A stretch of 12,420 bases of DNA, from positions 1-12,420 of the forward strand of contig JBHLLG010000081.1 of assembly GCA_048885925.1 (NCBI GenBank). Direction: 5' to 3'. The notes under the pieces were generated by a model. It saw only the letters and a list, made by a program, of their open reading frames with translations. It had not been told where the DNA came from and searched no databases. The position numbers and the translations under genes were made by a program. Shown here piece by piece: positions 3,253 to 12,420 of the stretch; the first letter of the stretch is position 1, and every line of letters begins with the position of its first letter. Source of the stretch: Candidatus Hermodarchaeota archaeon (lineage in GTDB: Archaea; Asgardarchaeota; Lokiarchaeia; Sigyniarchaeales; SOKP01).

Positions 3253-4296
3253 TTAAATTCCATATTTCTTATAAAAATCTGACCAATAATCGAACATATC
3301 CTTAAGAGTTTCTTCAATTGGAATTGAAACCTCCCACCCTAATTCATTTTTTATTTTTGAATTATCTCCAAGTATGATATCTTCATCAGTTTTTCTTAAT
3401 TTTTGAGGTATATTTTCTCTTATTTCTATGTTTTTTGATGAAAAGCTTAAAGCAATATTTAAAATTTGGCGAATTTGAATCTTTCTACCAGAGCAAACAT
3501 TATAAGTTTCTCCTGGTTTTCCATTTATTGCTGCTAACCAGATTGCCTTAAGTGAATCTTTTATTCCAGTAAAATCACGATAAGGATTTAGATTTCCCAC
3601 CTCAATGATTGGCTCTGACAAACCTAATTCAATTTTAGCTATTTTACTAATAAAATCTGCAGTTGCATCTCCTTTTCTTCTAGGACCAGTTTGATTAAAA
3701 AACCTGAGATTGATAATTTCAATTCCAAAATTAATATAGTATTGTCGTGCAAGTAACTCTGTAGCTATTTTACTAATTCCATAAGGATGTATCGCCAATA
3801 ACGGGTCAGTTTCTTTTAATGGCCTATTAATTGAGGTTGTTGTACCATATTCTGCACTGGTGCAAGCAACGATAACTCTTGTTTTTAATCTATGTTTTTT
3901 AACTGGTTCAAAAATATTAATTGTCCCTATAACGTTTGTTTTTATGGTTGTAATAGGGTCTTTCCATGATGGTAGAACAAGTGGTTGGGCACCAAAATGA
4001 AAAATATATTTTGGATTAATTTTTATAATTATATTTTCCAATAAACTAGCATTTTCCAAATCACACTCTAAAAATACAAAATTTTCATTAGTAGTGGGAA
4101 TCTGAACAAAAGTATTAAAAACTTTTAGTTTCTCTTCAAAAGTGAAAACAAGTTTTCCATCAGTATAATGATTTAAATTTTGTAAAGGGCGATCAGGGAG
4201 ATCAATACCATATACCTTTTTACCTTCCTTAATACAAAAATCAACCAAGTGTGATCCTAGAAAACCATTTGCTCCGGTAATAAGTATTTTTTCCAT
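3253..4296 (-). CDS. Extended SDR of the GDP-mannose 4,6-dehydratase/Rmd/WcbK(DmhA)-like family; probable GDP-sugar (possibly GDP-heptose) modifying enzyme
   Basis: 347 aa. Has ITGANGFLGSH (GxxGxxG), NVIGT, ACTSAEYG, YGISK (YxxxK), FNQTGPRR, VGNLNPYRDF and GETYNVCSG, typical of GDP-sugar SDRs. Confidence 0.8.
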   Translation of the reverse strand: MEKILITGANGFLGSHLVDFCIKEGKKVYGIDLPDRPLQNLNHYTDGKLVFTFEEKLKVFNTFVQIPTTNENFVFLECDLENASLLENIIIKINPKYIFHFGAQPLVLPSWKDPITTIKTNVIGTINIFEPVKKHRLKTRVIVACTSAEYGTTTSINRPLKETDPLLAIHPYGISKIATELLARQYYINFGIEIINLRFFNQTGPRRKGDATADFISKIAKIELGLSEPIIEVGNLNPYRDFTGIKDSLKAIWLAAINGKPGETYNVCSGRKIQIRQILNIALSFSSKNIEIRENIPQKLRKTDEDIILGDNSKIKNELGWEVSIPIEETLKDMFDYWSDFYKKYGI

Positions 4297-4328
4297 CTAA
4301 AACTCAAATCTATTAATTTTAATATAAT

Positions 4329-5462
4329 TTATTTTAATAACCCTTTTTCTATTAATTTTTGTATAGCTTTCTGAGAAGGTTTTTGAACATTGTTTTTTTG
4401 ACTCTTGATCCAATCAATTAAATCATCTATCCCTTCTTTAAAAGTTAAATTTGGTGCATACCCTAGTTTATTTTTTATTTTTGAAATGTCTGCTACGCAG
4501 TGTCTTATGTCACCAACCCTGTATTGGTGATTATAAATTGGTTTTAAATCAGGATTGATTTTTTTAGTAATTATTTCTGCTACTTCTTTTATTGTTATTG
4601 GTTTTCCGTTACCAACATTAAAAATCTCGCCATTAGCAGCACTCTTTTTCATAGCAAGAAGTAAAGCTTGACAAACATCTTTAACATTAACAAAATCTCT
4701 TGATTGGTTTCCATCTTCAAAAATTATTGGAGGTTTTCCATAAAGTGCTCTAATACTAAATATTGCACATACACCTGTGTAAGGATTTGATAAAGCTTGC
4801 CTTGTACCATAAACTAAAAAAAATCGCAATATACTTGTTTTTATCCCATAAGTATCGCATATCATTAAACTCATTTTTTCTTGAGCTTCTTTAGAAAAAG
4901 CATAAACAGAACTCGGATTATAAGGGGAATCTTCATCTGATAAAAGAGGTTTAATTTTTGATCCACATTTTGGACAATTTAATTCCCAATCTTTACGTTT
5001 CAACTGCTCTAATGATCTTAACTTAGGGAAGACGACCCCGCATTTGTTACATTTAGATTTTCCCTCTCCATAAATAGTATTGGATGAAGCAATAATCACT
5101 TTTTCTATATTATGTTTACCATTAACTAATATATCAAGTAAATTCGCTAAACCAAGTATATTATTATCTATATATTTTTGTATTTGATACATTGACTGAC
5201 CAACACCAACTTTTGCCGCCAAATGAAATATTATATCATTTTCCATTACAATATTTTCTAATTTTTTATAATCGTTAACAGATTCCTTAAAAAATTTCAC
5301 TTTTTTATTTAAATAATCTGGAGGATGATCGATTTTTCCATGAACTTGTTCTTCTAAGATATCAAGTATGGTTATTTCATACCCTTTTTGATCGATTAAT
5401 GTATCAGCCAGATGTGAACCAATAAAACCTGCTCCACCGGTAATTAATATTTTTTTAGACAT
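4329..5462 (-). CDS. NAD-dependent nucleotide-sugar epimerase/dehydratase (extended SDR) with a CxxC...CxxC insertion
   Basis: 377 aa. Has ITGGAGFIGSH, FHLAAKVG, ASS, YAFSK (YxxxK), DGNQSRDFVNV, FNVGNG and RVGDIRHC. The insert runs from CNKC (aa138-141) to CPKC (aa163-166). Confidence 0.85.
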   Translation of the reverse strand: MSKKILITGGAGFIGSHLADTLIDQKGYEITILDILEEQVHGKIDHPPDYLNKKVKFFKESVNDYKKLENIVMENDIIFHLAAKVGVGQSMYQIQKYIDNNILGLANLLDILVNGKHNIEKVIIASSNTIYGEGKSKCNKCGVVFPKLRSLEQLKRKDWELNCPKCGSKIKPLLSDEDSPYNPSSVYAFSKEAQEKMSLMICDTYGIKTSILRFFLVYGTRQALSNPYTGVCAIFSIRALYGKPPIIFEDGNQSRDFVNVKDVCQALLLAMKKSAANGEIFNVGNGKPITIKEVAEIITKKINPDLKPIYNHQYRVGDIRHCVADISKIKNKLGYAPNLTFKEGIDDLIDWIKSQKNNVQKPSQKAIQKLIEKGLLK

Positions 5463-5567
5463 TGAATTTATTAAAACTAATTTTAGTTATTTCTATTGTT
5501 CAATTGCATCAATATAAATTAAAGATTATGACAAACTAATAAAAATAATCGTTTTGTAAGTTAAATA

Positions 5568-5596
5568 TTAAAATTTCTAAAATTGAGAAAATTTAA
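5568..5596. repeat. Imperfect inverted repeat (29 bp)
   Basis: TTAAAATTTCTAAAATTGAGAAAATTTAA; 12 of 14 symmetric positions are complementary around A5582. Confidence 0.5.
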
Positions 5597-5616
5597 AATG
5601 AATCTTTCAAATAATA

Positions 5617-5654
5617 ATCAAATTTTTTAATGATTTATCATGAACAAATTTGAT
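5617..5654. repeat. Imperfect palindrome (38 bp), candidate operator or hairpin
   Basis: ATCAAATTTTTTAATGAT-TT-ATCATGAACAAATTTGAT; 16 of 18 arm positions are complementary. It extends to 5612-5658 with one bulge and ends 32 bp before the hddA ATG. Confidence 0.7.
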
Positions 5655-5686
5655 ATTACAGTACTTTAACAATAACAGTTATAAAA

Positions 5687-6697
5687 ATGATAATTCGTTC
5701 AAAAGCCCCATTTCGAGTAAGCTTTGGCGGAGGAGGAACAGATATGCCTCCCTATTGTCTTGAACATGGCGGATGTGTTATAAGTACAACGATTGATCGT
5801 CATATCTATATAACTTTAAAGCCAAGGGATGACAAAAAAATACATGTTTTTTCAATTAATTTTAACAAAGAGCTTATTTTTGATATTGGAGATAAAGATT
5901 ATTCTACTGATTTTGAATTAATCAAGGGAATTATTAATGTTTTAAATGTAAAAGAGGGATTTGACATTAATATCTATTCAGAACTTCCTGCTGGTTCAGG
6001 AATGGGCGGATCATCTTCTTTATCTGTGGCATTAATAGGAGCTTTAAATAAATACTATCAATTAGGATTATCTAAACACGAAATAGCACAAAAAGCATGT
6101 GATATTGAACGTATTGAATTAAAACAAAAGGGAGGATATCAAGATCAATTTGCAGCTGCTTATGGGGGTTTTAATTTTATAGAATTTTCTAATATTGTTA
6201 AGGTATCTCCTATAAATGCTAGTGAAGAAATGATAAATGAACTCCAATTTAGCTTAATTTTATGTTATATTGGAGGATCCCATTTTTCTTCAGATATACA
6301 AGATGAAGTGTTAAAAAGTTATAAATTTGAAAAAAAATCTTATATGGAAGCGATGCAAGATTTAAAAGATGTAGCCAATACTATGAGAAGTATTGTAGAA
6401 TCTAATAATTTAAAACAGATAAATGAATTTGGCAAACTGTTACACAAGGGATGGTTAGCAAAAAAAAGTTTAAGCAATAGAATTTCTAATCAAAAAATTG
6501 AGAATTTTTATTTAACTTCAATGAGGTTGGGAGTTCTTGGAGGAAAATTACTAGGTGCTGGAGGTGGTGGACACTTATTACTTTTTTCAGATTCTATGAA
6601 GAAATTTACAATAATTAAAGAATTAGAAAAAATTGGTGGAAAAATTGTTAATTTTCATTTTAATCCAAGAGGTCTTGAAGTTTGGACGATTAAATAG
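5687..6697 (+). CDS. hddA: GHMP-family kinase, D-glycero-alpha-D-manno-heptose-7-phosphate kinase
   Basis: 336 aa. Has APFRVSFGGGGTD, the GHMP ATP loop PAGSGMGGSS, GGYQDQFAAAYGGFN and GGKLLGAGGGG. Adjacent to gmhA and near gmhB. Confidence 0.88.
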   Translation: MIIRSKAPFRVSFGGGGTDMPPYCLEHGGCVISTTIDRHIYITLKPRDDKKIHVFSINFNKELIFDIGDKDYSTDFELIKGIINVLNVKEGFDINIYSELPAGSGMGGSSSLSVALIGALNKYYQLGLSKHEIAQKACDIERIELKQKGGYQDQFAAAYGGFNFIEFSNIVKVSPINASEEMINELQFSLILCYIGGSHFSSDIQDEVLKSYKFEKKSYMEAMQDLKDVANTMRSIVESNNLKQINEFGKLLHKGWLAKKSLSNRISNQKIENFYLTSMRLGVLGGKLLGAGGGGHLLLFSDSMKKFTIIKELEKIGGKIVNFHFNPRGLEVWTIK

Positions 6698-6729
6698 AAT
6701 TAAAATAAAATGATAAGAGGAAGAATGAT

Positions 6730-7296
6730 TTGGAAAATGAAATAATATCAATTCTGGATGAAAATATTAAAGTAAAAGAAGCTTTAAAAGGATTAACCCC
6801 TACAATTATGAAAATCGCTGAATGTATCATAAATGCTTATAAAAATAAAAGAAAAGTCGTTCTTTTTGGTAATGGTGGAAGTGCTGCTGATGCTCAACAT
6901 ATAGCAGCCGAATTTGTAGGAAAATTCTATAAAGACCGTGATTCACTTCCTTCTCTTGCTTTTCATACCAATACTTCTGTTCTCACAGCAACAGCTAATG
7001 ATTATGGATATGATTTAGTGTTTGAAAGACAAGTATCCTCTTTTGTGGAGAAAGGAGATGTTGCTATTGGTATTAGCACTTCTGGAAATTCAACTAATGT
7101 AATAAAAGGTTTAAAAAAAGCAAAAGAGAAAGGGGCTATAACAGTAGGATTTACTGGTCAAAAAAAAAATATAATTGAGGAAATTTCAGATATTTGTCTG
7201 AAAGTACCTTCTTCTGATACACCAAGAATACAGGAAGGACATATAACCGTAGGGCATATTATATGCTATTTAGTTGAAAAAGAACTTTTTGGGTAA
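6730..7296 (+). CDS. gmhA: Sedoheptulose-7-phosphate isomerase (phosphoheptose isomerase)
   Basis: 188 aa SIS domain with GNGGSAADAQHIAAEF, TATANDYGY, GISTSGNS and TPRIQEGH. TTG start preceded by a purine-rich GAGG (6717-6720). Confidence 0.95.
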   Translation: MENEIISILDENIKVKEALKGLTPTIMKIAECIINAYKNKRKVVLFGNGGSAADAQHIAAEFVGKFYKDRDSLPSLAFHTNTSVLTATANDYGYDLVFERQVSSFVEKGDVAIGISTSGNSTNVIKGLKKAKEKGAITVGFTGQKKNIIEEISDICLKVPSSDTPRIQEGHITVGHIICYLVEKELFG

Positions 7297-7306
7297 TTCA
7301 TACGTC

Positions 7307-7942
7307 ATGAAAAAAGTAGCAATTTCTATTCAGGCGATAGAAAACTTCATACCTGAAATAATTGAAAATATAAAAGGATATGATTATATCCACGTTGACA
7401 TTATGGATGGTAAATTTGTAAATAATAAATATAATAATCTTAATGTTCTTCAAATGTTAAAAGAAAAATATGAAATTCCTATAATTGCCCATTTAATGGT
7501 AACTAATCCAATTAATTATGTTAGTAGGATAATTGATAATATTGATATCTTTTTATTCCATTTTGAGATTAAATATGATAAAAATAAACTAATAAAAACA
7601 ATTAGAGCGAATAATAAAAAGGTTGGTATAGCTATAAATCCCGAAACGGAGATATTTGAAATTATACAATATTTAGATAAAATTGATCTTGTTTTAGTAA
7701 TGAGTGTAAATCCTGGATGGTCAGGTCAGAAATTTATACCAAAAATACTAACAAAAGTAGAAAATTTAGCAGAATATAAAAAAAAATACAATTTTCTTAT
7801 TGATGTTGATGGTGGGATAAATTTAATAAACGCAAAGCAGTTATTAAATGCTGATATATTAACTAGTTCTAGTACAATCTTGAAAGCGAAGGATCCTAAT
7901 AAAATAATTAAATTATTGAAAGAATCATTTGATTATGAATAA
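7307..7942 (+). CDS. rpe: Ribulose-phosphate 3-epimerase (divergent)
   Basis: Has HVDIMDG, HLMV, INPET, VMSVNPGWSGQKF and VDGGIN, so the metal ligands His/Asp/His/Asp are present. The start was moved from TTG 7274 to the in-frame ATG 7307 (211 aa), which removes the overlap with gmhA. Confidence 0.88.
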   Translation: MKKVAISIQAIENFIPEIIENIKGYDYIHVDIMDGKFVNNKYNNLNVLQMLKEKYEIPIIAHLMVTNPINYVSRIIDNIDIFLFHFEIKYDKNKLIKTIRANNKKVGIAINPETEIFEIIQYLDKIDLVLVMSVNPGWSGQKFIPKILTKVENLAEYKKKYNFLIDVDGGINLINAKQLLNADILTSSSTILKAKDPNKIIKLLKESFDYE

Positions 7943-8477
7943 GAAAAATAAAGCAATTTTCTTAGATCGAGATGGTGTGTTAAATAAAGAAGTTAACTAT
8001 CTGTCAGATCCAAATGATTTTGAATTTATCGATGGTTCAATTGAAGCTTTAAAAATTCTAGAAAAGAAAGGTTTCTTGCTTATTGTAATTAGTAATCAAG
8101 CAGGTATTGCACGGGGTTATTTTTCTGAAGAAACACTTAAAAGAATTCATGAGAAAATGATAAATATTTTAAAACAAAACAAAACAAAATTGGATGCTAT
8201 TTATTACTGTCCTCACCATCCTGAATATACTGGTCCATGTGATTGCAGGAAACCAAATCCTGGTATGATATTTAAAGCACAATTAAAATATAATATTGAT
8301 TTAAAAAGATCTTATATAGTTGGAGATACTTTGAAAGATATACAAACTGGTAAAGCAGCTAGTTGTAAGACAGTCTTAGTTTTAACAGGTTATGGAAAGG
8401 AAGAACAAAAAAAACTAGATTCAATAATGCCAGACATGATATTTAAAAACTTAAAAGAATTTGCTATAAATATATAA
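7935..8477 (+). CDS. gmhB: D-glycero-D-manno-heptose-1,7-bisphosphate 7-phosphatase (HAD IIIA)
   Basis: Has FLDRDGVLN, SNQAGIARG, the Zn loop CPHH...CDCRKPNPGM and GDTLKD. ATG 7935 overlaps the rpe end by 8 nt (ATGAATAA), suggesting translational coupling. Confidence 0.92.
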   Translation: MNKKNKAIFLDRDGVLNKEVNYLSDPNDFEFIDGSIEALKILEKKGFLLIVISNQAGIARGYFSEETLKRIHEKMINILKQNKTKLDAIYYCPHHPEYTGPCDCRKPNPGMIFKAQLKYNIDLKRSYIVGDTLKDIQTGKAASCKTVLVLTGYGKEEQKKLDSIMPDMIFKNLKEFAINI

Positions 8478-8521
8478 TAACCAATTATCATTATAATCAA
8501 TAAAATTTAGCTGTGAAATGT

Positions 8522-9178
8522 ATGAAATTTTTTATAGATACTGCTAATTTAAAGCATATAAGAGAAATGCAAGAACTAGGTATAATAGATGGTGTGACAA
8601 CAAATCCTACACTTTTAGCGAAGGAAGGAGCTGAACCTATAGAACAATTGAGAAAAATTTGTGAAATTGTTGACGGGCCTGTTAGTGGAGAAGTTATAGG
8701 ATTAACTACAGAAGTTATGGTTAGAGAAGCACGTGAATTAGCCAAAATTGCTCCAAATATAGTAGTTAAAATTCCTTTTACAAAGGATGGGATTAAAGCA
8801 GTTAAAATCCTTGAATCGGAAGGGATTAAAACAAATGTTACTCTTGTTTTTTCACAGAATCAAGTTTTAATTGCTGCTAAAGCAGGAGCTTCGTATATTA
8901 GCCCTTTTATTGGAAGATTAATGGATAATGGACAAAATGAAATTGATATGCTCTGGGAATCAATGGAAATTATTCGTGCGTATGATTTTAAATCTGAAAT
9001 AATAGTTGCTTCGGTTAGAAATACTCGACATGTTATCGAATCTGCAAAAATGGGAGCTCATATTGCTACAATTCCCTTTGATGTTCTTGAAAAAATGTTC
9101 AAACATCCAAATACAGATCTTGGATTAGATGCATTTCTAAAAGATTGGGAAAAATTGCAAAATCAAATAAAAAAATAA
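8522..9178 (+). CDS. tal: Transaldolase (small TalC/FSA-fold type)
   Basis: Starts MKFFIDTAN at ATG 8522 (218 aa). Has GVTTNP, the Schiff-base Lys in VVKIP and NVTLVFS. Glu in GPVSGEV and Phe in YISPFIGR are the transaldolase pattern; fructose-6-phosphate aldolase has Gln/Tyr there. Confidence 0.9.
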
Positions 9179-9187
9179 TCCTAAAAT

Positions 9188-10186
9188 ATGACTTTTATTG
9201 ATGAAATTTCCAAATGGAATAAAAGGAAAGTATTAATTATAGGGGATGCTTTAATCGATAAGTATATCTTTGGATATACAAATAGTATTTCACCTGATGC
9301 ACCTGTGCCGAATGTTAAGATAGAAAATACTTCTGTTTACATAGGTGCAATAGGATTAGTGTTACAGTTTATACAATCTTTTGGAGGAATTCCCGAGGTT
9401 TGTACTATTGTAGGAAATGATTTTGAAGGAGACTTTTTTTTAAAAAAAATCAAAGAATTAAAAGTGGACTCAACGGGTATTTTAATAAAAGAAAAGATAA
9501 AGACTCCACAAATAACTCGAATAAAAGCAATGAATCAACATCTTTTAAGGTTAGAAACTGATTATAATAGCGATATTTCGAACTCGATAATAGAAGAATT
9601 TGAAGCTCTAATAAAAGATAGATCTAAAGATATTGGAGCAATATTAATTTTAGATTATGGCTTAGGAGGAATTTTTACTGATCAATTTATTCAAAAATTA
9701 TTAATTCTTCTAAAAAAAATCTATAAAAATGTTCCTATTATCGTTCGCCCCACAAAAACTAATTATTATTTATATGAAAACGTGGAATTAATTAAAATAA
9801 ATCTTCAGAAAGCTCTAGATACTTTTTCAATTGATTGTTGCAATGAAACAAGTATTAGTATTGCAGGAAAAAGAATTTTAAATTCCTCTAAATCTAAGAA
9901 TGTTTTACTAAATTATTTAGAAACTGATTCTTTTCTCTTTTCAAGAGAAATTGAAAAAGTAGAAAAATTCAGTCCAATTTTACAACAACCTGTTAGAAGT
10001 TATGTAGCAGTTGGTAGTGTCATTATGGCAGTACTGGGATTATCATATGCTTCTGGAATTTCGGTGTTAAATGCAGTAAAAATTGCTCTTTTTGCTGCTG
10101 CTCTTACAGCTACACTCCCTCCTGTTAAATTTTTTAAACCTGAGACACTTTCTAATTTTATATTAACTAAAATGAATAAAAAATAA
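9188..10186 (+). CDS. RfaE/HldE kinase-domain homologue (PfkB/ribokinase fold), predicted catalytically inactive
   Basis: 332 aa. VLIIGDALIDKY, ISPDAPVP, VGNDFEG, QHLLRLE and ILDYGLG match HldE domain I. The usual DVTGAGD appears as SYVAVGS, and NxxE appears as NLQK. Confidence 0.8.
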   Translation: MTFIDEISKWNKRKVLIIGDALIDKYIFGYTNSISPDAPVPNVKIENTSVYIGAIGLVLQFIQSFGGIPEVCTIVGNDFEGDFFLKKIKELKVDSTGILIKEKIKTPQITRIKAMNQHLLRLETDYNSDISNSIIEEFEALIKDRSKDIGAILILDYGLGGIFTDQFIQKLLILLKKIYKNVPIIVRPTKTNYYLYENVELIKINLQKALDTFSIDCCNETSISIAGKRILNSSKSKNVLLNYLETDSFLFSREIEKVEKFSPILQQPVRSYVAVGSVIMAVLGLSYASGISVLNAVKIALFAAALTATLPPVKFFKPETLSNFILTKMNKK

Positions 10187-10207
10187 TAAAATACGTTATT
10201 TAACAGA

Positions 10208-11062
10208 ATGGAATTATCTAAAACTGATGAGCGGACAATCTTAATTGATATTTTGGATATCAAAAAAGACATTTTAACGATGATATATAAAGCGCAATCA
10301 GGTCATCCAGGGGGTTCATTATCATGTGCAAATATAATTTATCTTCTTTATAACAATATTATGAGAATAAATCGTGAAAACCCTACTTGGGAGGATAGAG
10401 ATATATTTATTTTAAGTAAAGGACATGCTGCACCTGCTTTATATGCTGTTTTATCAAAATTTGGGTTCATAAGAAGAGAAGAACTATTTAGTTTAAGACA
10501 ATTTGGTTCAAAATTACAAGGACATCCTGTTAAAAATCCAGAATTCGGGGTAGAAATAACTACTGGATCTTTAGGTATGGGATTATCAATTGGGGTTGGA
10601 TGTGCTTTAAATTCTAAACTTGATCATAATGATAAATTTATATATGTTTTAATAGGAGATGGAGAATTAAATGAAGGTGCTATTTGGGAGGGTGCTATGT
10701 CAGCTAGCCATTTTAAATTAGATAACTTAATAGCAATAATAGATCGTAATGGTATACAGTTAGATGGATCAACAGAAGAAATAATGGCTTTAGAGCCATT
10801 AGCAGAAAAATGGAAAGCATTTGGATGGGAGGTCATCGAAATTGATGGATCAGACTTAAATCAGCTGTTGCAAGGATTTGAAAAATCTAAAAACATAATT
10901 GGCAAACCTAAAGTGATTGTATCTTACTTAATTAAAGGTTCTGATGTATCATTTATGCAACACACTCAAAAATATCATGGACGTGCACCAAATGAAGAAG
11001 AATTTAAGACTGCTATTAAAGAACTTGAAAATATAAAAATTAAATTAATAGAAGGTAATTAA
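10208..11062 (+). CDS. Transketolase, N-terminal (ThDP-binding) subunit
   Basis: 284 aa. Has SGHPGGSLS, RDIFILSKGHAAPALY, LQGHP, TTGSLGMG, the ThDP motif GDGELNEG...IDRN and HGRAP. Confidence 0.95.
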   Translation: MELSKTDERTILIDILDIKKDILTMIYKAQSGHPGGSLSCANIIYLLYNNIMRINRENPTWEDRDIFILSKGHAAPALYAVLSKFGFIRREELFSLRQFGSKLQGHPVKNPEFGVEITTGSLGMGLSIGVGCALNSKLDHNDKFIYVLIGDGELNEGAIWEGAMSASHFKLDNLIAIIDRNGIQLDGSTEEIMALEPLAEKWKAFGWEVIEIDGSDLNQLLQGFEKSKNIIGKPKVIVSYLIKGSDVSFMQHTQKYHGRAPNEEEFKTAIKELENIKIKLIEGN

Positions 11063-11066
11063 ATAA

Positions 11067-11990
11067 ATGTCTGAACCTCCTCTTAGAGACACTTTTGGAA
11101 ACTTTTTAATTGAAATTGGAAAAAAAGAAAAAGATATTATTGTTTTAGACGTTGATTTATCATCTTCTACAAGGACATCTAAATTTGCTAAAGCATTTCC
11201 GAATCGTTTCTTTAATTTGGGAATTGCGGAGCAAAATATGTTAGGAGTGGCAATGGGGTTTGCAATTTCTGGAAAAATTCCAGTTGTTAGTGGATTTTCA
11301 ATATTTACAACTGGAAGAGCATGGGAATTCATAAGATTTGCTTGCCATGATAACTTAAACGTAAAAATTATCACAACTCATGGGGGATTAGTAGGAGAAG
11401 ATGGTAGTACTCATAATGCATTAGAAGATTTTAGTTTAATGACATCACTCCCAAATTTAAAAGTATTAATACCCTCAGATAATATCGAATTAATAGAGAT
11501 TTTAAATTATGTATTAGAAACTGAAGGACCCTTTTATGTTAGGCTTCCAAGGGGTTCTTTCCCTAAAATCCATGAAGATAACTATAAATTTATGATAGGT
11601 GAACCTAATATATTGAAAAAAGGAAAGGATATTTGTTTAATTGGAACTGGTTATGGAGCTTTTTTAGCATTAAGATCAGCTCTTTTAATTGAGAAAGAAT
11701 TAAAAATAACACCAAAAGTGATTAATCTTCCTAGTATTAAACCTATAAATAAAAAATCTCTATTGAAGGAAATAAAATCAATCAAAGGAATTGTAGTAAT
11801 AGAGGAACATAATTTATATTGTGGATTTGGAAGTATACTGGCAAGAATTATTTCTGAGAGTAATCCAAAAATGATAAAATTCATTGGAATTAATAATTCA
11901 TATGGCGAATCTGGGAAGAGAGAGTTATTATTAGATTCATATGGCTTAAATGAAAAGGCAATTTTAGACCAAGTAAAAAGTATAATTTAA
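11067..11990 (+). CDS. Transketolase, C-terminal subunit
   Basis: 307 aa. Has DLSSST, FFNLGIAEQN, GEDGSTH, YVRLPR and IEEHN. Starts 4 bp after the N-terminal subunit stop. Confidence 0.95.
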   Translation: MSEPPLRDTFGNFLIEIGKKEKDIIVLDVDLSSSTRTSKFAKAFPNRFFNLGIAEQNMLGVAMGFAISGKIPVVSGFSIFTTGRAWEFIRFACHDNLNVKIITTHGGLVGEDGSTHNALEDFSLMTSLPNLKVLIPSDNIELIEILNYVLETEGPFYVRLPRGSFPKIHEDNYKFMIGEPNILKKGKDICLIGTGYGAFLALRSALLIEKELKITPKVINLPSIKPINKKSLLKEIKSIKGIVVIEEHNLYCGFGSILARIISESNPKMIKFIGINNSYGESGKRELLLDSYGLNEKAILDQVKSII

Positions 11991-12018
11991 GATTAATAGT
12001 ATAGAACTAGTTTATAAA

Positions 12019-12420
12019 TCAATTTGGTAAATAACCCATATCATTTAAAGCATTCAGAATTATAGTTTTGCTCTCTTCAATTGTTTGTTTATCTGTTTCA
12101 ACAATTATATCAGCATTATCTGGTTCTTCAAAGGGGTGATCAATTCCAGTGAAATCTTTAATCACACCTCTTCTTGCTTTTTCATACATTCCTTTAATAT
12201 CTCTCCTTTCGCATTCTTCAAGAGAGCACTTTACATAAACAAGAATATAGTCTCCAATCTCTTTCCGAGAATACTCTCTGATTTTATTATATGGTGAGAC
12301 AAATGAAGCAAGAACAGCAACTCCATTACGTGTCAAAATTTTGGCGACAAATGTAACTCTTTCTATATTCATGTTTCTATCCTCTTCTGTAAAGCCAAGA
12401 TCCCTTGTTAAACTTTTACG
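12019..12420 (-). CDS. cysC: Adenylyl-sulfate (APS) kinase, 5'-truncated by the window edge
   Basis: The frame is open to the window edge (RKSLTRDLGFTEEDRNMNIERV...). Has SFVSPY and RDIKGMYEKARRG-IKDFTGIDHPFEEP. The P-loop lies outside the window, and an N-terminal fusion cannot be excluded. Confidence 0.92.
   Translation of the reverse strand, partial: RKSLTRDLGFTEEDRNMNIERVTFVAKILTRNGVAVLASFVSPYNKIREYSRKEIGDYILVYVKCSLEECERRDIKGMYEKARRGVIKDFTGIDHPFEEPDNADIIVETDKQTIEESKTIILNALNDMGYLPN

Follow-up and report, generated by a model that had tools for sequence, protein, structure and literature searches.

What does a sugar kinase do once its catalytic motifs are gone? This question is raised by a stretch of 12,420 nt (hereafter the window) from Candidatus Hermodarchaeota archaeon (GCA_048885925.1, contig JBHLLG010000081.1), in which one gene of a heptose operon, hereafter X, encodes a homologue of the heptose-7-phosphate kinase HldA (RfaE domain I) without kinase motifs. 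A preliminary description of this DNA, made from the sequence, had proposed X to be a repurposed pseudokinase, and this proposal is supported by the profile, structure, orthologue, synteny and substitution-rate analyses reported here. X is conserved under purifying selection at the level of an enzyme and is not decaying. Judged from its sequence and surroundings, it is very probably no longer a kinase, and we tentatively regard it as a non-catalytic heptose-phosphate-binding accessory or regulatory protein of a module leading from sedoheptulose-7-phosphate (S7P) to heptose.

The preliminary description had reported an uninterrupted open reading frame (ORF) of 332 amino acids 9 bp downstream of tal and 21 bp upstream of tktN, with the N-terminal signatures of HldE/RfaE domain I retained and the GAGD, NxxE, GGAANVA, IDPK and ATP-loop motifs replaced. 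Coordinates and translation agree with this: the frame contains no internal stop, tal ends at position 9178 and tktN starts at position 10208. The kept signatures can be read directly from the translation, and the replacements are borne out by a HMMER alignment (E 6.2e-12) to HldA of B. cenocepacia (4e84), the sole solved relative by sequence. The corresponding features of X are as follows.

9188..10186, forward strand: X, 332-amino-acid HldA/RfaE-domain-I homologue without kinase motifs, candidate pseudokinase (from the ORF, profile match, alignment and AlphaFold2 model)
9242..9265, forward strand: G19-D-A-L-I-D24-K-Y26, kept N-terminal sugar-binding signature (GDxxxDxY), D24 being invariant
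9287..9310, forward strand: I34-SPDAPVP41, kept lid-strand signature
9344..9364, forward strand: G53-AIGLVL59 in place of GGAANVA, the sugar-contacting Asn being changed to Leu57
9503..9562, forward strand: T106-PQITRIKAMNQHLLRLETD125, kept lid segment containing Q117-HLLRL
9743..9754, forward strand: V186-R187-P188-T189 in place of VDPK
9800..9811, forward strand: N205-LQK208 at the site of the NXXE Mg motif, with Lys for Glu
9827..9853, forward strand: S214-IDCCNETS222, family-specific motif
9911..9931, forward strand: N242-YLETDS248 at the site of the TRGExG phosphate loop, with Asn for Thr, Leu for Gly and Ser248 for Met
9992..10018, forward strand: V269-RSYVAVGS277 in place of V-x-D-V-T-G-A-G-D, with Ser277 at the position of the catalytic Asp

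In the alignment, GAIGLVL stands opposite GGAANVA, VRPT opposite VDPK, NLQK opposite NRAE, NYLETD opposite TRSEEG and VRSYVAVGS opposite VFDVSGAGD. Because AVGS thereby faces G-A-G-D of 4e84, the catalytic Asp is assigned to Ser277 of X (codon AGT, 10016-10018). According to PMC5931981, the GXGD Asp is the catalytic residue of the ribokinase family, the glycines of this motif hold the donor phosphates and NXXE binds Mg. The D156-YGLG160 segment is retained in the translation, and within the lid segment T106, T110, R111, Q117 and R121 are common to canonical HldA, the canonical Lys being Ile109. Comparison of 29 sequences of the family of X, referred to as the Loki family, with 33 canonical HldA sequences located the loss in the ATP/catalytic half of the protein, as had been proposed: of the positions conserved in canonical HldA, the Loki family keeps 27/34 within residues 1-180 and 9/23 within residues 181-310. 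The C-terminal switches comprise Asp to Arg187, Glu to Lys208, Thr to Asn242, Gly to Leu244, Met to Ser248, Asp to Ser271, Val to Tyr272, Gly to Ala274, Ala to Val275, Asp to Ser277, Asn to Leu301 and Gly to Pro312.

With hidden Markov models, X falls into rfaE_dom_I (TIGR02198; E 1.7e-41) with 142.4 bits, far under the curated equivalog cut-off of 345 bits. In a six-frame search of the genome with this model the top match was X itself (141.9 bits), and no canonical HldA was found. The Pfam PfkB model (PF00294) matches residues 14-309 with 27.3 bits, narrowly above its gathering threshold of 25.8 bits, vs 23.9 bits, and thus under the threshold, in the six-frame search. The model of the bifunctional HldE (NF008454) aligns at profile positions 5-293 of 475 only (111 bits vs a cut-off of 521 bits), and by this match the C-terminal adenylyltransferase (cytidylyltransferase-like) domain of HldE is not present in the 332 residues of X. 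Fused forms were not found either, there being no longer relative (582-2000 amino acids) at E<=1e-40.

On the structural side, an AlphaFold2 model of X built from a 70-row alignment reached a predicted local distance difference test (pLDDT) value of 94.1 and a predicted template modelling (pTM) value of 0.92. It superposes on HldA: a Foldseek search returned 4e84/4e8y on top (E about 1e-26, TM 0.78-0.85), with pseudouridine kinase, ribokinase and Pfk-2 ranking lower, and a search of the ESM Atlas yielded nothing beyond the own cluster of X and canonical HldA clusters. X thus combines the predicted ribokinase-like alpha/beta fold with beta-sheet lid typical of HldA with replacement of the GXGD catalytic Asp, the NXXE motif and the DPK Asp. 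By descent and predicted fold it belongs to the PfkB superfamily and the HldA lineage, and it shows the combination expected of a pseudoenzyme, namely homology to active enzymes, replaced catalytic residues and purifying selection. Four independent motif sets are gone, the operon holds an intact GHMP-type heptose kinase and the genome lacks a canonical HldA; a kinase role of X is therefore very unlikely.

Conservation of X was followed in several sequence sets. Of 300 relatives obtained by word-indexed search, the best 120 are 327-346 amino acids long and 66-82% identical to X, the named ones being metagenome-assembled genomes (MAGs) of Lokiarchaeia/Promethearchaeota. A locus scan with one genome per species gave 54 loci, all from Asgard MAGs; an intact ORF of about 330 amino acids is present in 53/53 loci holding the gene. 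The preliminary description had named shared loss of GAGD, conserved synteny and a ratio of nonsynonymous to synonymous substitutions (dN/dS) below 1 as marks of a repurposed protein, and all three are seen. Ser277 and Arg187-Pro188 occur in all 46 aligned orthologues (54-82% identity), in which S214, C217, T221, S222, S248 and S271 are likewise invariant and K208, N242, A274, V275 and G276 are at least 90% conserved; Asn205, Gln207 and Thr189 are less conserved than the remainder of the AVGS, NLQK and RPT replacements. Within the S214-IDCCNETS222 motif, I215 is invariant as well and Cys218 nearly so. The gene tktN follows X in 47/49 loci with downstream sequence. By the Nei-Gojobori method (NG86), applied to 15 non-overlapping pairs with dS of 0.1-1.0, the dN/dS of X is 0.141, compared with 0.133 for HddA, 0.084 for GmhA, 0.241 for Rpe, 0.157 for GmhB, 0.068 for Tal, 0.116 for TktN and 0.153 for TktC. 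Within X, the ratio is 0.107 for residues 181-310, the former ATP/catalytic half, vs 0.151 for residues 1-180. As this former catalytic half is the most constrained part, the old active site has been rebuilt into something still in use and not merely erased. Flags raised during these scans, namely one at locus L036 and an in-frame TGA in tktN of several genomes, were set aside as alignment run-through of the natural stop.

Extension of the search beyond the close orthologues showed a graded series of forms. An exhaustive profile-free search of 1.84 billion representatives placed the Loki family in one full-length 50%-cluster. The next tier consists of P0128, P0130, P0131, P0132 and P0135 (34-37% identity) as well as P0138, P0139 and P0144 (~30%), followed by canonical HldA. 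Motif loss among these degenerate HldA-like proteins is stepwise: P0144 retains GVGD and NRRE while carrying ACPR for VDPK, P0131 and P0138 retain a GGAANV-like motif and an Asp with the glycines lost, P0128, P0130, P0132 and P0135 show xGS, and P0139 has Cys at the Asp position. In most tier sequences, one of which is named Promethearchaeota, the DPK Asp has given way to Arg (or Lys) and the NETS motif is present. Arg187 is found in most of the wider clade and NETS is common to it, while the vicinal Cys217-Cys218 pair is specific to the Loki family. Outside the GTDB family of X, matches (E<=1e-10) occurred in 2/265 other Asgard genomes, belonging to two other families. One of them (G133) carries a 36%-identical form X' in the order gmhB-X'-tktN-tktC, with an HddA-like gene on another short contig; the other (G073) carries a 29%-identical form directly upstream of tktN, and HddA was not found in it (best match 59 bits).

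A quick IQ-TREE analysis (LG+C20, 67 rows, three other PfkB proteins of the genome as outgroup) recovered the Loki family as one clade (100) joining six Asp-less tier sequences (100), then P0144 (97) and then the group of P0131, P0138 and G073 (93), all inside canonical HldA; the support values stem from the SH-like approximate likelihood ratio test (SH-aLRT) after a short search with long outgroup branches. On this basis the nesting within canonical HldA appears well supported, the exact sister not. A long stem of 1.08 changes per site leads to the Loki family, within which branches are short, a pattern that suggests a burst of change followed by constraint.

The interpretation of X depends on its neighbourhood, which in the window is flanked as a whole by IleRS and an adenosine-5'-phosphosulfate (APS) kinase gene and includes, besides X, the following genes.

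3253..5462, reverse strand: two divergent short-chain dehydrogenase/reductase (SDR) genes of GDP-mannose-dehydratase/epimerase type, frequent neighbours of the operon
5687..6697, forward strand: hddA-like GHMP kinase with intact motif II (PAGSGMGGSS), candidate for the genuine heptose kinase of the operon
6730..7296, forward strand: gmhA, S7P isomerase
7274..7942, forward strand: rpe, ribulose-phosphate 3-epimerase
7929..8477, forward strand: gmhB, heptose-1,7-bisphosphate 7-phosphatase with HAD motif DRDGV
8513..9178, forward strand: tal, short transaldolase of fructose-6-phosphate-aldolase type
10208..11062, forward strand: tktN, N-terminal half of a split transketolase
11067..11990, forward strand: tktC, C-terminal half of the split transketolase
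12019..12420, reverse strand: APS kinase

The order hddA-gmhA-(rpe)-gmhB-tal-X-tktN-tktC is nearly unchanged across the loci, Tkt and Tal being the conserved neighbours of X. The two exceptions to tktN lying directly 3' of X are a locus with an inserted SDR gene (L021) and a second, eroded copy of the operon (L034; MAG bin60, 5333-12338). In the latter, tal-X is followed by a 119-amino-acid remnant of the TktC C-terminal domain and further by a GT11 glycosyltransferase, two methyltransferase-like genes, an epimerase and a GDP-mannose 4,6-dehydratase (GDP-fucose genes), neighbours which point to a putative role in surface-glycan synthesis. A prediction of a complex of X with TktN and TktC (46-row alignment each) scored 0.24 against a mark of 0.32 and speaks neither for nor against binding.

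Among 134 genomes of the same GTDB family, X was detected in 67 (E<=1e-10), HddA in 66 and TktN in 64 (both E<=1e-60). All three are present in 59/134 and none in 63/134, including genomes rated 100% complete; among the 12/134 mixed cases are assemblies that are fragmented or incomplete, and matches truncated by a contig end. This joint presence and absence indicates that the module as a whole, with its transketolase, is passed on as one accessory set. In this Asgard lineage the genes for Rpe, transaldolase and the split transketolase look dedicated to the supply of S7P for heptose and not to central metabolism. About half of the family has transketolase, transaldolase and Rpe solely as components of this accessory heptose module, which bears on reconstructions of Asgard central carbon metabolism.

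A sugar-1-phosphate nucleotidyltransferase (HddC/HldC) was found neither in the operon nor within about 6 kb of X in the 54 loci. The genome contains 9 NTP_transferase matches, none of which reaches the 300-bit cut-off for HddC. The best of them in this respect (124 bits) is a ManC-like protein of 378 amino acids (G000:C1:249482-250615), which is present in 112/134 family genomes and therefore counts as housekeeping. Two short NTP_transferase matches were considered as HddC and rejected, as they look like RmlA/GalU types.

Taken together, the reading we tentatively prefer is that X derives from a bacterial-type HldA of PfkB/ribokinase fold, would have lost phosphoryl-transfer chemistry and probably nucleotide binding too, and has been kept as a functional protein. 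The operon would first make S7P by the split transketolase, transaldolase and Rpe, and then heptose phosphates by GmhA, HddA and GmhB. The half of X that is kept (Asp24, ISPDAPVP, T106, T110, R111, Q117, R121 and D156-Y157) corresponds to the part of PfkB kinases that grips and covers the sugar; X may thus bind heptose-7-phosphate, the 1,7-bisphosphate or the 1-phosphate via Asp24, the lid residues Arg111 and Arg121 and the kept strands. Arg187, Lys208 and Ser277, together with the kept Gly276 at a helix N-terminus, could make up an anion pocket without metal where Mg and the gamma-phosphate once lay; this pocket might hold a sugar phosphate group in place of ATP, the 1-phosphate of the kinase product being expected at the same place. 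The nucleotide pocket would be filled by the small-to-large changes to Leu244, Ala274 and Pro312 (each from Gly), Tyr272 (from Val) and Leu301 (from Asn). With the sugar half kept and the nucleotide pocket presumably closed, X would therefore act without catalysis, linking the amount of heptose phosphate present to the supply of precursors or to hand-over within the pathway, in a Gal3p-like logic.

Several observations weigh against such a passive binder. The putative anion pocket and filled nucleotide pocket were placed by alignment positions and by general features of PfkB structures. At the former active site, the strong conservation of Ser, Thr, Cys, Arg and Lys, all polar, would suit an enzyme at least as well. 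X has switched two sugar-side positions that canonical HldA conserves (Leu57 for Asn and, in the lid, Ile109 for Lys), so that its ligand might be something other than a heptose phosphate. In the eroded second copy X is intact though tktN is deleted, and strict dependence on an adjacent transketolase is consequently not required. Finally, 2/72 genome matches to X (G202, G253) show an in-frame TAA, which may be run-through of the natural stop as at L036.

The same conserved pocket could belong to an enzyme with new chemistry on heptose phosphates at the rebuilt site, converting heptose-1-phosphate to a nucleoside diphosphate (NDP)-heptose or acting as mutase, anomerase or phosphotransferase. 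For this possibility, which we consider rather unlikely, speak the tightest constraint of X at its former active site and the invariant Ser, Thr, Cys, Arg and Lys lining it, the lack of the fourth GDP-heptose enzyme in the operon and its surroundings as well as of any match at the HddC cut-off in the genome, and the flanking SDR dehydratase/epimerase genes, whose products need an NDP-sugar. Set against this, no adenine/ribose or phosphate-loop position has kept its residue, several now carrying a bulkier one, and the Cys pair and several other new residues are not common to the wider degenerate clade; we know of no precedent for nucleotidyl transfer on a ribokinase fold, and one of the 9 NTP_transferase proteins, the ManC-like guanylyltransferase, could serve heptose-1-phosphate. 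That X has evolved a chemistry on heptose phosphates which needs no nucleotide or depends on one in another manner, and at its boldest takes over the HddC step to make the NDP-heptose for the adjoining SDR genes, appears slightly less probable still. If true, X would represent a new, Asgard-specific enzyme class on an old kinase scaffold. Retention of the predicted ribokinase fold and of the sugar-binding Asp24 would also suit a sugar or sugar-phosphate kinase with an unconventional base and donor, e.g., pyrophosphate (PPi) or polyphosphate held by Arg187 and Lys208. Arg270 lies a few residues ahead of the old GXGD motif, and in PMC5931981 basic residues around GXGD are described as gained by ribokinase-family proteins that depend on PPi. 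The PPi-dependent enzyme described there, however, keeps both the GXGD Asp and the NXXE Glu, which makes a PPi- or polyphosphate-dependent kinase improbable: X lacks these two residues as well as the DPK Asp and the TxG loop, its score stays far below the kinase equivalog cut-off, and the operon already contains an intact GHMP heptose kinase.

We give a similarly low probability to X being a ligand-independent scaffold that joins transketolase, transaldolase or the heptose enzymes. The lid mediates dimerisation in the ribokinase fold and is kept in the predicted structure, and the tal-X-tktN order is conserved. On the other hand, a ligand-free protein hardly accounts for the kept sugar-binding residues and for a rebuilt pocket that is invariant, the second copy of X persists without tktN and, as weak evidence, fused forms were not found. 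The loss of all catalytic motifs might further suggest a decaying relic nearing loss, a reading with next to no probability: all loci holding the gene show intact ORFs, dN/dS is 0.14, orthologues as distant as 54% identity show little or no variation at the replaced positions and the fold is predicted with confidence. The selection and conservation data thus refute a pseudogene. We therefore place X among the pseudoenzymes of the PfkB family on present sequence evidence, with a modest chance of a new enzyme.

In respect to known systems, X resembles canonical HldA in its homology, the predicted fold with lid, the shared GDxxxDxY, ISPxAPVP, T..TR, Q..LR and DY signatures, its nested position in the HldA tree and its linkage to gmhA and gmhB. 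It differs from HldA by lacking GXGD, NXXE, DPK, the TxGxxG loop, the GGAAN Asn and the adenine-side Asn, by being archaeal and encoded in an operon of the GHMP-kinase (HddA) type, and by the missing adenylyltransferase domain. Few pseudoenzymes stem from small-molecule kinases, and most of these are eukaryotic, Gal3p and the plant FLN proteins being examples; the latter are not known to have kinase activity. FLN1 and FLN2 of the plastid RNA polymerase complex are PfkB-family proteins like X. For FLN1, PMC3409070 states that two vicinal cysteines are needed to bind thioredoxin z, and X possesses the vicinal Cys217-Cys218. The resemblance ends there, as X belongs to another branch of the family and to a sugar operon instead of a transcription complex, and its Cys pair sits at an unrelated position and is absent from its wider clade. 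Yeast Gal3p, a galactokinase-like, non-catalytic protein that binds its sugar and signals to a partner (PMC3409070), offers a functional analogy for X as a non-catalytic sugar-kinase homologue. Gal3p, however, has the GHMP fold and still binds ATP, whereas X has the PfkB fold and has lost the nucleotide-contact residues. The GDP-D-glycero-alpha-D-manno-heptose pathway, outlined in PMC4691232 as GmhA-HddA-GmhB-HddC with a 6-deoxyheptose branch, shares with the operon gmhA, the hddA-like gene, gmhB and the neighbouring SDR dehydratase/epimerase genes. In contrast to this pathway, X takes the fourth slot in place of hddC, and the operon has its own S7P supply (tal, split tkt, rpe).

No description of the X protein or its operon was found in the literature, supplements not being covered, and the portions of PMC11976288 around Asgard transketolase and transaldolase terms do not mention the operon. 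X represents a clean prokaryotic case: a single-domain HldA descendant with every catalytic motif replaced and more than 50 orthologues under enzyme-level constraint, to which stepwise intermediate forms and a fixed place among seven operon genes with clear chemistry are added. Owing to these properties, the question of what a dead sugar kinase does becomes directly testable with a handful of accessible ligands. Public records call many of the 332-amino-acid relatives (P0002, P0019, P0023, and others) [quoted passage not shown]. Judged by their sequences, this is a propagating misannotation, because these proteins possess neither the adenylyltransferase domain nor the kinase motifs; the label would wrongly imply an ADP-heptose pathway in Asgard archaea.

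Some further features of the operon and its flanks were noticed. GmhB scores above the model of the beta-heptose-1,7-bisphosphate phosphatase (205 bits, cut-off 178) and below that of the alpha type (150, cut-off 250), which contrasts with the alpha-type kinase (HddA) of the operon. The rpe gene is its mobile member, located after tktC or outside the row in L027, L032, L030, L036, L039 and L054, and also the least constrained one (median dN/dS 0.24, one pair 1.7). Between tal and X, a gap of 800-940 bp is found in L007 (5060-6001) and L024 (5193-6001) vs about 10-30 bp elsewhere. Epimerase/dehydratase models cover the SDR of 377 amino acids at 4329-5462 (reverse strand) in two separate parts (about 5-135 and 175-358), a split that points to an insertion of ~40 residues in its Rossmann domain. 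Downstream of the operon, APS kinase is encoded in 30 loci, ATP sulfurylase in 28 and a gene of the type I phosphodiesterase/nucleotide pyrophosphatase family in 24; such a set for making 3'-phosphoadenosine-5'-phosphosulfate (PAPS) beside a glycan-precursor operon hints at a possibly sulfated glycan.

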